NCBI GenBank assembly: GCA_026025075.1
Contig: JAPEUI010000151.1
Location: 1 to 35,203 of the forward strand
DNA: 35,203 nt
Reading direction: 5' to 3'
DNA from: Vezdaea acicularis
Lineage: Eukaryota
A model generated the notes under the pieces. It did not search any database, was not told the origin of the DNA, and saw only the letters and a list, made by a program, of their open reading frames with translations. Both the position numbers and the translations under genes were made by a program. This document shows, piece by piece, positions 7,549-14,338 of this stretch (its first letter is position 1; each line of letters starts with the position of its first letter).

Positions 7549-10500
7549 CTAGAAGTGGTGTTCGGACTCGAGGTTCATGTTGTGGTCGTGGTCGTGAGGG
7601 TTTTCGTCTGGGCCTATATCCGAGCTTGCCATGTTGTTCTCGAATTGGTCCCAATCTTGAGCAGAGCCGTCGATTGCGGTCTCTTCAGCTCCAGAGGGGA
7701 AGCCGGAAGACGGACCGGCAGACATTCCTTCGGGGTAGAAGGGATACGCCTGGTTGAACGGGTACGAGTTGACATCTTCGTCCATGGGATGCATGTCTCG
7801 GGTATCCATCATAGAATTGAAGTTGTCATCTTCCACGTGAATCCCATTAGTGTGCTCACCGTTCATGAACAGCTTGACGCCGGCGGGAGCATCACTGGGC
7901 TTGTCGAAAAAGATACCGTTGGAGGCGTAGCTGTCGCCAGCAAGAGCAGGATCAATAGGGATTTCGACTTCGTGACTGCTGGCCGTGGCGGTCCTTGCGT
8001 TGGTCTCATCGTCAGAGATAGAGTCCTGCCCATTATAAGAATCTCCTTCACCTTGCCCGTTTTCCGTGTCGGTCTCGCCATCCTCGAAAGCATAGTCATC
8101 CCCAAAAAGCTCTTCCTGGTCCTTCAGCAGCTTCGCTTCCTTTGCTGCTTTCTCGAGCATCTTCTCTGCAACGTACGAATAGGAGGCATCCATCCCTGCT
8201 GGGCGCTTGATATCGTCATACTTCTTCACCCACGCTTTATTTGAGCGGGCGAAGTCGACCAGGCACTCCTTGGACCGGGGATCAGCAATCGACTTAGTGT
8301 AAGACCCCAAGATCGTCTCCTTAGGCATATGGGAATTTGATCCGTTTGACATGCAAGGGTTGCACGAACAGCAATCCTCGCACTTCGGACACACCCAGTC
8401 TGGGTCCTCCATGACAGCGTTTGGGTAAATCTCGAACGATCGCCACAAGACTCCATAACAGTATCGAACCTTGCAATCATCATCTGAGCACTTAGCCAAT
8501 TTATGGTCGAAATGCGGGACTTTGCAGATGTGGCAATTTGCGGCTCCTTTTAATTGTCTTGGAAGGCTTTGCCCATGTTCACCCCTCCTACGGTTGGTGC
8601 GTCGAGCCGAACCACCGCGTCTAGACGAAGAACTGTTCTCTTCAGTGAAGACATCTTTACGGTCAGGCTTTCTGCAGTCGTGCCAAGGTCGCACCTCCAT
8701 CTGGTCCTGGCAGATTTCCGCTAGGGTGTTGTATGAGAACCGCTTTCGCACTTCAGCGAGGGGCTGGGGTGACTGATCGGTAATGATGCCCTGAGCTAGT
8801 ATAATGCCTCGCCATTCTTCGTAATTCTGGGCTAACTCATCCCAGGTGAATTGTTCAACCCAGTCTAGCTGGGAGACACAACGACAGCTGCGGCCCATCG
8901 CATAGCACTCAAGACAAACATCGTAAGAATTCCCATCGGGGTCTTGCTTTTGGCAGGCAGCTCTCTTGCAAGTCAAGAAGCGGTTGAAGATATTCCCGTG
9001 ACAAAAGGAGCACACAACATTCCCATCAAAGGCCACTAACTCAATGGGTTTTCCATTGGGAGTTTCCGTAGGAAGCATCTCCGAGACAATGATTCCTGTG
9101 AACAACGAAAAGAGGCGTCTGAAGTCCTTAACCAGTTGCTGCACTCGAATATCTGTGGATGTTTGAGAAATTGGCTGCGAGCTATCGTCGGTCTCATCCA
9201 CAACTTGTAGCAGCGTCGCATATTTCTTGAGTGTGAAGTATACCATCGCCTTGTTCTTGTAGACCTCCTCACGACAGACAAGCCGAGCAGTCTTCAGAGC
9301 TTCATGCATGGCATACTCCAGACTCTCCACACTGGTTCGATTCCAAGCAGCTTTTATAGAGAGGGTCCCTCGGTTATAGACTTGATGAGGCGCGAGAGAC
9401 GGTACAAGAATGAAGTCGCCGACTTGTTGCTCAATTACGTATGTGGTAAATGGTGCATTCTCCCATTCCTCGATGCTGGCTTGGTAATTCTCCGTTTCTA
9501 TGTCCTGCTGGAGAATTGTGGTGAAATAAGCTGACACTAGCGCTCGATCTTTATTTTCTGTCATGAACCACACGGCGCTGCCTTTCCTGGAAACTTGCTT
9601 GGTCTCGCCTCTGTAGTTGATCGTCTTATCTCGAGAAGCAAATACCATCAGGTTGTGGCCAAGAGAGCCGTTCATTTCCTTGTGAGCGGGAGTATAAGTT
9701 CCTTCATGGCCAGCGTAGATCATGATATTGTCAGCTCGCATGTCGAACGGAAGGCTGCTCATGAGATCTCCAGCCGGGGCAATACCCTTAAGAGCTGGGT
9801 CAGGCTCCCTATCATCGGATCCATGGATGTCATTCATGGAATCCTTCTCGTCAACGCTCTCATTCCAATAGAACACGCTCGATGGAACACATCTCTTAAG
9901 ATCTTCTTGCCATTCCACTGGACAGTCAACGTCTTTCATGTAAACTCTAGGAGGACGAGCTGCATCTCCTCGCTGATATTTAGCCCATTGCTCCTGGAAA
10001 CTCGCTATACTCTTAAGATAGTCTTCCACGGTGTATGGCACGTAGTTGTTCTTGATGAGGTCTTTACACGATTCCTCTATGCAGGTTTAGTGAGTGACCA
10101 AAGACAAAGGAAGCTACAATGTTATGAGAGTACGTACCTTTTGCGCCATAGTTTTTAATGAGCCAGTCCGTCGTGTACAGGCTCAGGTCCAACTTTCGAT
10201 CCAACCCCTTGATGACCAAGGGTTTTCCTTCTAAGATGACGTGTTTTGTAACGTATTTGTCGAACGCATAAGGTCCCTTTCTTAGAAGCTCATCGATATC
10301 GATCGCCGGAACGGGCTCAAAGCGTTCGCTACGGTCGATCAGTTCCGCAATATTGAGATCAACGGGGATTGAAAATTTGTCGAGGTACTCCTTCATGGCT
10401 TCAGCCCATTGATCTTCAGGCACTAATTCTATCTCCTCTCTTGGCTCCTCCCCGAGTCCCTTTTCAGATTTTGCTCGATTTCTACCAGCTTTTTTCACAA

Positions 10501-10655
10501 TTGCCTTCTTTGGCCTTGAGCTTTCCGAGACGACTGCTGAAGTAGCTAGGGACAAAGGTTTAGTTCACTCCATCGGGTAAAAGATCTCTGCCGGAGTAAT
10601 CACCTGGAGCCTCAGCGCGGGGTTCCCTTGAGCTCGAACGATTTGGTTCACTGCT
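7549..10655 (-). CDS. JmjC-domain chromatin protein with Cys-rich fingers (zf-4CXXC_R1-like), resembling Neurospora DMM-1; start codon unresolved
   Basis: Exons ~10655-10604, 10545-10138, 10076-7549. JmjC signature YTPAHKE..LAPHQVYN (HxE..H); Cys clusters CSFC..C..CLEC..CRC and CHIC..C..C..C..CPKC..CCSCNPC; acidic tail. Confidence 0.85.
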
Positions 10656-10865
10656 ATACGCCCGGGCAATTAGAAGAGCTTATTTTGTGAAATTAATGAT
10701 CGAGGGTGGCAGGGCAATGAAAGAAACAAAAGCACGTGTGACGGTAATTCAAAAGAAGTGTTGAAAGTGTGGAAAGTTGCATTTTAAGCTGATCGATGGG
10801 GAACCGAGCTGGTGATTGGCCAAACATTTTTGAGCTTGGACTGAAGGTCAAAATGTTTCGCGTAT

Positions 10866-10963
10866 ACGCGTGAAAGACGGGAATTGATGGCTGACGTAAT
10901 GAACTCGCGTCGACGCTAACGTTAACAGGCAAAACGCTAATGTTCGTCTATAACGCTAATGTT
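10866..10963. promoter_or_regulatory. Putative promoter elements upstream of the JmjC gene: MCB-like ACGCGT and three ACGCTAAYGTT copies
   Basis: ACGCGT at 10866-10871; ACGCTAAYGTT starting at 10913, 10934 and 10953. Confidence 0.35.
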
Positions 10964-11051
10964 TTTCATCTTGGAAATTGAAAAGTTAACTTACATGAGC
11001 CTCAAGGCATCTTGGTCAGCCATGATGTGAATAGTACCTATGCTTCCCAAG

Positions 11052-11557
11052 CTAGAGCACTAAGCTGGAATGCATTGAACGTAAGTCTGCATTCCATTAT
11101 ATTTTGCAGGATCACTTACCTAGCTTCAAGGGTGAATCGTTTGGATAGAGGGATACCCCGACGGTATTGTAAATACTCGATCAGAAATAGCTATCGAGAG
11201 CAGTCAGTCAGAGACTCACTACGACTATATTGGTCTGAAATATCATAAGCTGCTCACCGGGTTCTCACTGTTGACGGTGGACAAACTTTGCTTTAGAGTC
11301 GTCGAGGAGCACCTCCGTCTCTGTGACACGAGAGTTAGTACGGTGACGGGTTCCAACGAGGAGGGAGAGGGCCCAGACAAGGAGCAGTTGGTATAAATCT
11401 TCTTGCGTGGGCTCCTCAAGCTTTGCTTAACCAGCTTTATATTGAGCAAGGCCTGCCGCGTGATTTGCAGTTGGTCTTCTTGCCGCACGGTGCTCACTTT
11501 ACGAGGCGAAGGTTTTCCGAGCCGCCTACTTTTTGTAGTGTGCTGTTGCCGTGGCAT
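11052..11557 (-). other. Unannotated spliced transcript; possible 68-aa basic microprotein or non-coding RNA
   Basis: Three ordered consensus introns: 11497-11321 (GTGAGC..TACTAAC..CAG), 11257-11191 (GTGAGC..CTGAC..TAG), 11119-11065 (GTAAGT..CAG). Phases are compatible from ATG 11557 to TAG 11052. Confidence 0.5.
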
Positions 11558-11703
11558 TTAGGGTTAGAGCCTCATCTTTTGACCCTAGCGGGAAAGCTCG
11601 CGGAGTGTAGCGCTTCTGATTGAGTTATGAACAGCTAAAGAACTAGGTTTCTTGTCAAAAGCTTGATTTACTTTACAAAAGTTTTTGCATCAGAAGATCT
11701 GCT

Positions 11704-13011
11704 ATGGCTGCATGGAAGCACTCTGCGGGGTGCGGGCAAGGCCTTTGGACGTATAGGGCCCGCTGTCTATCGGCTAATTATAGGCTCAGAGGTGCAAATC
11801 TCGTTAGATGTGTCTCTCGATCAAGCTGCGATATTGAACGAACGCCGTCTGTAGCTACCGAGCCGCTCTCATCTTCTATAAAGGGATGTTTACAACCCAG
11901 AACCGCTGTCAGCAATAGTCAGACTCAAAGTCTGAGTCGCAAAGAATCTTCTTCTGCCTTACTATCAACATTGAATGACAAGTCTCCCCCTACGAGCATA
12001 CTACCTCCTTATGTGGCACCTAATTCCGGAATACTCGCCCGCCTACCAGCGTCCTGGATTCCCTATGCGGAATTAGTCAGGCTTGATAAACCTACTGGGA
12101 CTTATTATCTCTTTTTCCCCACTCTTTTTAGCACTCTCATGGCCGGCTCTTTGACGAATCCTATTACATCACCAATTTCATTAGCTACCACCATTTCGCT
12201 TTTCTTCACTGGCGCTCTAGTCATGCGCGGTGCCGGCTGTACTATAAACGATCTCTGGGACAGAAATTTAGACCCTCACGTTACTCGTACTCGACTGCGA
12301 CCGATTGCTCGAGGTGCAGTGACACCAAAGCAAGCTATAGTATTTACTGGCTTTCAGCTCCTCGCTGGTCTGGCGGTCTTGTTACAATTCCCGAGATCAT
12401 GCCTATACTATGGCATCCCTAGCTTACTGTTCGTCGTGGCGTATCCACTCGCAAAGCGTGTAACTTACTATCCCCAATTCGTCCTTGGACTTACATTCTC
12501 TTGGGGCGCTATCATGGGATTTCCTGCTCTTGGAATAGATCTTTTGAGCAATCAGGCAGCACTTTCAGCAGCAGCTTTTCTTTATGCAAGCAACGTGGCA
12601 TGGACAGTTCTTTACGACATGATATATGCTCACATGGACATACGTGATGATGCTGCTGCTGGAATCAAGAGCATTGTTCTTCGACATGAGAAAAATACAA
12701 AATCAATCATGTCGATACTAGCTATGACTCAGATTGGCTTACTTGCCGCAGCTGGAATTACAGCTGGTGCCGGGCCGGTCTTCTTTATTAGTAGCTGCGG
12801 CGGCACAGCTTTGACCTTGGCTATTATGATAAAGAGAGTCAAATTGAAAGATGTAAAGGATTGTTGGTGGTGGTTTCGCAATGGCTGTTGGTTCACCGGA
12901 GGAGCTATAAGTATCGGGTTGTTGGGTGATTATACCTTGCGACTATCAGGGCTACAAGAGCAAAGTGGCCAAACAGCCGAGATACATTTAAAGGCATCAC
13001 TGGAGCATTAG
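11704..13011 (+). CDS. COQ2: 4-hydroxybenzoate polyprenyltransferase, mitochondrial
   Basis: UbiA-family motifs RLDKPTG, GAGCTINDLWDRNLDPHVTRTRLRPIARG, YPLAKR, YDMIYAHMD..DD..GIKS; multiple hydrophobic segments. Confidence 0.97.
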   Translation: MAAWKHSAGCGQGLWTYRARCLSANYRLRGANLVRCVSRSSCDIERTPSVATEPLSSSIKGCLQPRTAVSNSQTQSLSRKESSSALLSTLNDKSPPTSILPPYVAPNSGILARLPASWIPYAELVRLDKPTGTYYLFFPTLFSTLMAGSLTNPITSPISLATTISLFFTGALVMRGAGCTINDLWDRNLDPHVTRTRLRPIARGAVTPKQAIVFTGFQLLAGLAVLLQFPRSCLYYGIPSLLFVVAYPLAKRVTYYPQFVLGLTFSWGAIMGFPALGIDLLSNQAALSAAAFLYASNVAWTVLYDMIYAHMDIRDDAAAGIKSIVLRHEKNTKSIMSILAMTQIGLLAAAGITAGAGPVFFISSCGGTALTLAIMIKRVKLKDVKDCWWWFRNGCWFTGGAISIGLLGDYTLRLSGLQEQSGQTAEIHLKASLEH

Positions 13012-13106
13012 AAACATCCCTGCATAGTGTTGGGAGAAACTGGTTTAGACCAAGATCTACGTCCAATTATCATACATGACACATCTCCGGTTATAGGTTG
13101 TTCAAA

Positions 13107-14338
13107 TCACCAGGAAGGCGCAGGACACAATCCTGCGTCTTGTGATGTGAGCTAAAGAGAAATAAAATCACGTATCATGGAACTTACCGACTTGAACCTT
13201 CTGCCCAGTCATAGAGGAGTTCTTTGCCAACATTACGAATGCTTCAGCGCAGTCTTCAAGGTCGGTCTTCACTCTACTAGTTAAACCTGTCCTTTTAATT
13301 CTGAACAAGTAAGCTTACCTCTTTCTTCAAGAGTGCCTTATTCTTCGTCATCGTGATTCGATCTTCACCGAATCCAGCACCCTTATGTAGTTGTCAATTG
13401 CTTTGAAGCTTTCATTGGAGGTGCCTTCAGCGTACCCAGTCTGTCAAAAGAAGCCCAGGCAATACTGCATTTATTCGAACTTTCGGACCCTGCGTAAACG
13501 TAAGGCATTGCATCAAGTGCAGTCCCTAACACACTTAAAGATCCGCATGTCTCATGCAGCTACCCAGGGCTACTAACTGCAGCTTTTGACACAGCATAAG
13601 CCATGGTGCTTCCAGAAGTGCCCACACCCTGGGAAACTTAGTACCAAGTTCTCCTTGAGAGTCCAGATTGGAACAAACCGCGATCGATGAGGTCATAAGG
13701 AACACCCCACCGTCAGTGTTTGCGTTGAACGTGGGGAGGGCTTCTCTGAGCAAGAACATCGGGCCTTTGACGTTGACGCTCCAGCACTAGACCAATCAGA
13801 CTTTATACAAAATCTTTGAGGGCGCGTTTCGATGAATACCTTATCCCAGTCTTCTTCGGACAGGGCATCGAGGTCTCCAAATCTAGAGAACTTTGTCCAG
13901 CCCTCCGAGTTTTTCAGCTTATAGGGCTATGGTCAAGCATTGATATATATTACCGCATTTGAAATCAGAATATCTAGACCTCGTAGCTGTTTAATTGCTT
14001 CTTGCACTACATCCACGCAGTCCACAAGCTTGCCCATATCCTGCGCCCTTTTAGTCTGATGTAGCACGGACGTGTGGTAGTTGTGTGTGGAGTTTACCCC
14101 CTTCAACGCAATGCATTTGACTCCACAGTCTTTCTCGATGCTCATGACTGTGTTCTCGGCTGCCTCCACATTGCTCGAGTAGTTGATCGCAACTGCGCAT
14201 CCCTCTTCTGCGAACTTACGGGCTATGACAGCCCCAAGACCCCTTAAGACATGAGATCATGAATCCTCAAGATGGTGGTTCGGCGTACCGTGAGCCGCCT
14301 GTGACTAGGACTTTACGATTCTTGAGTGCATATGGCAT
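13107..14338 (-). CDS. Classical short-chain dehydrogenase/reductase (255 aa, 10 exons)
   Basis: Exons 14338-14289, 14242-14098, 14040-13954, 13902-13840, 13786-13679, 13628-13578, 13525-13436, 13381-13319, 13266-13188, 13138-13107. Motifs VLVTGGSRGLG, LDILISNAG, YAVSK, VRINAVLPG, TGQKVQVDAG. Confidence 0.92.

Follow-up and report, generated by a model that had tools for sequence, protein, structure and literature searches.

The spacer between a COQ2 gene and a head-to-head JmjC-domain gene of Vezdaea acicularis carries five ordered intron-like units on the minus strand, between COQ2 and the JmjC start. We came to this spacer through a prediction, made from the letters of a 35,203-nt stretch of DNA (hereafter the window), that 579 nt of apparently empty sequence next to COQ2 hide a spliced minus-strand gene: an unannotated 68-aa microprotein, a non-coding RNA that might host a snoRNA, or an alternative leader of the downstream JmjC gene with an upstream ORF (uORF). 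The region most likely holds no separate protein-coding gene. Of the three readings, the leader fits best, with its splicing and its transcript read from sequence. With somewhat less than even confidence, we tentatively assign the region to the JmjC transcription unit, as a non-coding 5' portion rich in introns, which may include a first coding exon (11023-10995) and in which the predicted 68-codon frame would be at most a uORF.

The spacer of a conserved head-to-head gene pair

The window is fungal, with a Pezizomycotina-like character. The COQ2 gene consists of one uninterrupted 435-aa frame, and its relatives carry the names COQ2 or 4-hydroxybenzoate polyprenyltransferase. We noted that a public 415-aa COQ2 model (P0123) treats 60 nt (20 residues) near the N-terminus (region 11704-11800) as an intron; in the genome, the frame stays open across its full length. 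The minus-strand gene encodes a JmjC domain N-terminal to a diverged zf-4CXXC_R1 domain (residues 123-248 and 515-582, respectively, of an 845-aa frame) and contains a homology-supported intron of 61 nt at 10137-10077. Its closest named homologs are only ~46% identical. A 794-aa ORF product from another assembly (P0001) is 99% identical to the main JmjC exon, with a few substitutions and a C-terminal indel, hence a near-identical sister genome exists.

The predicted region lies in the 1307-bp spacer between the JmjC ATG at 10396 and the COQ2 ATG at 11704. For comparison, 80 metagenome loci (L001-L080) were retrieved with a profile of COQ2 relatives. Among the 50 loci with more than 1500 nt of flank upstream of COQ2, 48 have a divergent JmjC ortholog adjoining it, and JmjC is also divergent beside COQ2 in five further loci with less flank. 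Since the pair is kept in 48 of 50 loci, the head-to-head arrangement is old. The spacer, by contrast, is longer here than in all 53 relatives in which both starts were placed (median 548 bp, range 313-889 bp). No DNA similarity to it was detectable in the spacers of the relatives. Conservation at the protein level, which had been proposed as a check, was not found either: a tblastx search of the whole spacer against the 80 syntenic loci gave a best E value of 0.12, which argues against a microprotein. The relatives carry 22 donor-like motifs in 26,196 nt on the JmjC strand of 46 distinct spacers (0.84 per kb), with a maximum of three per spacer (n = 46). Because the spacer is longer, shows no similarity to those of the relatives, and the latter have few donor-like motifs, the predicted region appears to be lineage-specific extra sequence in the spacer of a deeply conserved pair. 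The spacer has no copy elsewhere in the window, convincing terminal repeats indicative of a mobile element are absent, and the composition of the spacer has no clear signature of a degraded repeat.

The spacer also contains motifs reminiscent of promoter elements for the gene pair. AACGCTAATGTT is present in three direct copies, one of them at 83% identity, that are spaced 19-21 nt apart at 10912-10963, and a CCAAT-type palindrome, TGATTGGCCAA, lies at 10813-10826. The only CACGTG of the spacer is at 10733, 337 bp from the JmjC ATG and 971 bp from the COQ2 start. All of these motifs fall inside putative intron 4 (Table 1). We compared the position of CACGTG in 43 of the 53 loci, 10 having been dropped as duplicates of another locus, and found the motif in 14 of the 43 spacers; its median distance was 257 bp to the JmjC start and 211 bp to the COQ2 start. 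These distances suggest that a proximal JmjC promoter may lie downstream of the predicted region, with the extra DNA between this promoter and COQ2. Such an arrangement would favor a separate RNA, or nothing at all, over a JmjC leader. The most widely shared 7-mer in the relatives' spacers is AGGTGAG (17 of 43), which occurs on either strand and mostly in loci that are likely closely related.

Intron-like units on the minus strand

The original prediction of three minus-strand introns was accurate in its particulars. All three main donors, the acceptors and a branch-like TACTAAC at 11340-11334 were present (Table 1), and joining the exons reproduced the 68-aa frame. Putative intron 1 is in frame and stop-free, as had been proposed, and its retention leaves a contiguous ORF of 104 aa (11243..11557); ATG 11557 lies 146 bp from the COQ2 ATG. 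Two further donor-like motifs had been suggested, of which the one at 10994 is perfect and the one at 11037 is only weak (GTACTA).

Table 1. Coordinates of the intron-like units, the exons between them and the two flanking genes, listed from COQ2 toward JmjC. A slash separates exon from intron letters at a donor.
Feature	Coordinates	Strand	Description
COQ2 (UbiA family)	11704..13011	+	head-to-head neighbor, ATG 11704
Predicted exon 1	11498..11557	-	from ATG 11557, 20 codons
Putative intron 1, 177 nt	11321..11497	-	AAA/GTGAGC...TACTAAC...CAG
Putative exon 2, 63 nt	11258..11320	-	without ATG
Putative intron 2, 67 nt	11191..11257	-	CCG/GTGAGC...CTGAC (twice)...TAG
Putative exon 3, 71 nt	11120..11190	-	without ATG
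Putative intron 3, 55 nt	11065..11119	-	TAG/GTAAGT...CTTAC (variant branch)...CAG
Putative exon 4	10995..11064	-	stop of the predicted ORF at 11054-11052; ATG 11023
Putative intron 4, 341 nt	10654..10994	-	CAT/GTAAGT...CTAAT...TATAG
Putative exon 5, 50 nt	10604..10653	-	open in the frame linking ATG 11023 to JmjC
Putative intron 5, 58 nt	10546..10603	-	CAG/GTGATT (weak +5)...ACTAAAC...CCCTAG
JmjC exon	10138..10545	-	canonical ATG 10396; ortholog N-termini align there
Main JmjC / zf-4CXXC_R1 exon	7549..10076	-	3' of the 61-nt intron 10137-10077

The intron statistics of PMC5677156, drawn from 2022 Fusarium introns, served as a fungal consensus. In these statistics the donor GT is followed by A (74%) or G (16%), A (42%), G (93%) and T (66%) or C (16%); the branch is CTRAY in 91%, with CTHAH and TTRAY as variants; the acceptor is YAG; and lengths range from 42 to 529 nt with a median of 57 nt, longer introns being found toward the 5' end. 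Judged by this consensus, which is that of Fusarium and not species-specific, the five donors (GTGAGC, GTGAGC, GTAAGT, GTAAGT and GTGATT) are GTRNGT-like, as in U2-type introns, and the branches (CTAAC, CTGAC, the variant CTTAC, CTAAT and the variant CTAAA) fall into the Fusarium classes. The acceptors (CAG, TAG, CAG, TAG and TAG) are all YAG, and all five lengths lie inside the Fusarium range. The weakest signal is the donor of putative intron 5, which lacks the G at +5 that 93% of the Fusarium introns have (PMC5677156); this counts against a JmjC leader. The branch-like ACTAAAC of the same unit is shared with the homology-supported JmjC intron. Bridging long ORFs yielded far too many candidate introns for a confident set.

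Minus-strand ATGs between 11557 and 11023 are found only at 11246, within putative intron 2, and at 11097, 11092 and 11075, within putative intron 3. Their confinement to putative introns speaks against a chance arrangement; however, ATGs are likewise absent from the plus strand between 11070 and 11627, and the scarcity of minus-strand ATGs may thus be compositional. Putative intron 2 also contains an unused GTGAGT at 11219, and putative intron 3 has alternative acceptors at 11060 and 11052 that place the next exon in the other two frames. Because the three acceptors of intron 3 thus cover all frames, an open continuation is easy to find, and this weakens the case for a microprotein.

In the interpretation that we tentatively favor, the minus-strand signals would most probably be those of the 5' portion of the JmjC transcription unit. 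Its start site would lie near COQ2, at about 11600 or else some tens of nucleotides downstream of a TATAAA at 11441-11436. Since this TATAAA lies inside putative intron 1, it could allow a transcript to start within that intron and skip exon 1. The leader would be spliced through up to five short introns (Table 1) and would join the exon with the canonical JmjC start. In the spliced RNA, ATG 11023, which has a good context (A at -3, G at +4), would be in frame with JmjC and may add ~76 N-terminal residues. Were exon 1 included, the 68-codon frame would be a uORF and not a protein in its own right. The frame is indeed positioned like a uORF: it lies upstream of the JmjC ORF on the same strand, and its stop is 28 nt before ATG 11023. 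Through putative introns 4 and 5, ATG 11023 opens a frame of 1004 aa, compared with 928 aa from ATG 10396. By the codon model described below, the extra 76 codons reach +0.10 bits per codon, a usual value for coding sequence in the window. The five putative introns total 698 nt, and the spacer without them measures 609 bp, inside the range of the relatives. That the spacer exceeds those of all 53 relatives, and that the putative introns account for the excess, argues against chance.

The JmjC N-terminus itself gives a mixed picture. Many of 119 ortholog N-termini begin MPAQRP..F.PI.PDLDL and align to ATG 10396, the rest being N-terminally truncated models; judging from this alignment, ATG 10396 is the ancestral JmjC start. 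None of the 119 has an N-terminal extension like the proposed one, which counts against a JmjC leader. The JmjC frame is open without an ATG for 56 codons upstream of ATG 10396, to 10564, but upstream open frames of at least 56 codons are found in 9 of 53 relatives and hence are not unusual, again a point against a JmjC leader. When longer public proteins were searched with the 166-aa frame of the JmjC N-terminus, no match was obtained at E up to 0.001, which is weak evidence, and an exact 33-base pattern around ATG 11023 had 0 matches in metagenome contigs. The public protein collections searched appear to be without a model containing the JmjC first coding exon. The N-terminus of the V. acicularis JmjC protein (10138-10564, minus strand) was also seen to have diverged from the MPAQRP... 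motif.

We also assessed the coding potential of the predicted frame. The homology query was the contiguous 104-aa ORF (exon 1, intron 1 and exon 2), a stand-in for exons 1-2, and the 24-aa frame of exon 3 was scanned against Pfam only. A phmmer search with the 104-aa ORF against 1.84 billion representatives found no real homolog. Two matches with E ~4e-4 were rejected; both were to internally repetitive proteins and consisted of many short aligned stretches. None of the 26 spacer ORFs on both strands came at or near the Pfam cut-off. With a codon model derived from 3331 codons in six long ORFs of this DNA, the 68 codons scored -0.138 bits per codon, below every one of 47 coding chunks of the same length from the window (mean +0.125, sd 0.125, minimum -0.132) and below 74% of 242 other open segments (mean -0.077, sd 0.107). 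The non-coding score and the lack of relatives of the frame are as expected for a leader. A nuclear localization signal with a CDK site, read into the first exon junction, was based only on a short basic pattern. A lineage-specific microprotein gene of 68 aa, or of 104 aa with intron 1 retained, would draw on the frame being kept across three intron-like units and on the stop-free intron 1. The failed searches and the codon score are set against it, as are the weak context of ATG 11557 (T at -3) and a 3-codon ORF that begins just upstream at 11575, and we regard such a gene as most improbable. It would likewise be a very long shot that a spliced gene was born de novo in a conserved bidirectional promoter, ~750 bp of lineage-specific DNA having gained a basic frame of 68 codons and three canonical introns, with that frame being translated, whether into a new nuclear microprotein or as an exceptionally long uORF that spans introns and gates translation of a heterochromatin-boundary factor.

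Alternative explanations

It is quite possible, if in our view doubtful, that the motifs, the TACTAAC and the open frame are coincidental, and that the region is untranscribed or unspliced promoter or spacer DNA that is long in this lineage. On its minus strand, the window has 39 instances of GT[AG]AG[TC] (1.11 per kb), five of them in the 579 nt of the predicted region, compared with one on the plus strand of the same 579 nt, an asymmetry that chance does not readily provide. Five donors were seen in 1 of 2000 dinucleotide shuffles; an ordered three-intron in-frame chain of at least 50 aa was seen in 0 of 2000 shuffles and in only 1 of 478 overlapping real tiles of the window, namely this one. 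These figures, too, run counter to coincidence. The criteria of these tests were chosen after the finding had been seen, and the original prediction had the whole window to pick from. Moreover, a second cluster of five GT[AG]AG[TC] within 316 nt (12427-12742, minus strand) lies antisense inside the COQ2 coding sequence. It may have arisen by chance from codon composition or may hint at an antisense transcript; real introns within it are unlikely. Across the window, a looser finder returned 19 intron-like units on the minus strand and 13 on the plus strand, some of them antisense to COQ2, with three in the predicted region and four in the tile 12097-13403. The equal cluster antisense to COQ2 and the four looser units in this tile show that such clusters arise by chance, and the motif cluster in the spacer exceeds chance only modestly. 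Coincidence is further favored by donor-like motifs at 11268 and 11219 that have no role in a leader, by the less common C at +6 in two of the three donors, and by the lack of conservation of any kind in the relatives. By our estimate, an ATG-started ORF of 104 aa in 1.3 kb at 47% G+C is also not rare.

We consider it unlikely that the region produces an independent spliced non-coding RNA, which would diverge from the COQ2 promoter, start near 11600, be spliced at two or three short introns, and terminate ahead of the proximal JmjC promoter (~10990-10900). Such an RNA would account for splice-like units 1-3, for the non-coding-like codon usage and missing homologs, and for the extra DNA between the promoter-like motifs and COQ2; the location of the JmjC promoter-like motifs downstream of the unit would also fit two transcription units. 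However, we found no recognizable signal for its end, both the perfect GTAAGT at 10994 and the in-frame connection to JmjC are left to coincidence, and 0 of 46 spacers in the relatives have more than three donor-like motifs on that strand. The suggestion of a box C/D or H/ACA snoRNA within one of the introns is barely credible. Intron 1 is long for a fungal intron, and a GAGCAG/CTGCTC stem in intron 2 flanks a TATGATA...CTGA arrangement, but scans of intron 1 and its neighbors gave no Rfam, box C or fold signal. At E up to 10, Rfam returned two weak matches, both outside the predicted region and far below gathering scores. A box C of the form RTGATGA was absent on both strands of the spacer, a tRNA scan found none, and fold z-scores against shuffles were ordinary for intron 1 (-0.95) and intron 2 (+0.29). 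The ~55 nt that intron 2 would leave is also too short for a snoRNA. On the plus strand, the region might instead serve COQ2 as an extended 5' leader, with transcription starting from the motif cluster (10733-10963) and possibly with an intron from GTAAGT at 11081 to CAG at 11693, which we judge to be very unlikely. The stretch without ATG from 11070 to 11627 (557 nt) is the longest on the plus strand of the window and is directly upstream of COQ2, the GTAAGT at 11081 is one of only three on the plus strand of the window, and the CAG at 11693 is pyrimidine-rich. The distance of CACGTG from the COQ2 start, far greater here than its median in the 14 relatives, would also fit a long COQ2 leader. 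Nevertheless, we estimate that a gap of 557 nt, as the longest of ~540, is expected in about one window in ten, the 613-nt intron would be long against the Fusarium range given in PMC5677156, and the COQ2 leader has no other support.

Relation to known leaders, uORFs and divergent transcripts

All of the readings considered here are known kinds of feature. A JmjC leader, which remains our tentative preference, would be mainly an annotation point if true: the JmjC 5' end would be much longer than in the orthologs and multi-intron, perhaps with a different N-terminus, and the locus would exemplify how leader introns can enlarge a compact, conserved bidirectional promoter in one lineage. As many as five introns would be unusual for a single leader. 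Similar to fungal intron-containing 5' leaders, the units lie upstream of the JmjC coding exons on the same strand, and their donors, branches, acceptors and lengths are within the Fusarium ranges in the statistics of PMC5677156. In contrast to such leaders, the introns here are putative, and the spacers of the orthologs are too short for a leader of this kind.

Leaders with uORFs include those with the arginine attenuator peptide of arg-2/CPA1 and the uORFs of cpc-1/GCN4, and the predicted frame resembles these uORFs in lying on the same strand upstream of a main ORF, here ending shortly before a well-placed ATG. The regulatory uORF peptides known so far are short and conserved, whereas the frame here, at 68 codons, extends across three putative introns and lacks conservation. 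As for divergent non-coding RNAs of bidirectional promoters, the candidate would start, as they do, within ~150 bp of the start of the opposite-strand gene, and it has no coding signature and is lineage-specific. By contrast, divergent promoter transcripts are usually unspliced and unstable, and the candidate here would carry two or three canonical introns.

The downstream JmjC gene is likely DMM-1-like, an identity that we take from its domain arrangement. The significance would be greater if, hypothetically, the long upstream frame controlled this DMM-1-like chromatin regulator. According to PMC10538959, JmjC lies N-terminal to zf-4CXXC_R1 in fungal proteins that include Neurospora DMM-1, and PMC9023284 reports that DMM-1 prevents heterochromatin spreading. 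The domain order of the downstream gene, JmjC followed by a diverged zf-4CXXC_R1, is that of Neurospora crassa DMM-1.
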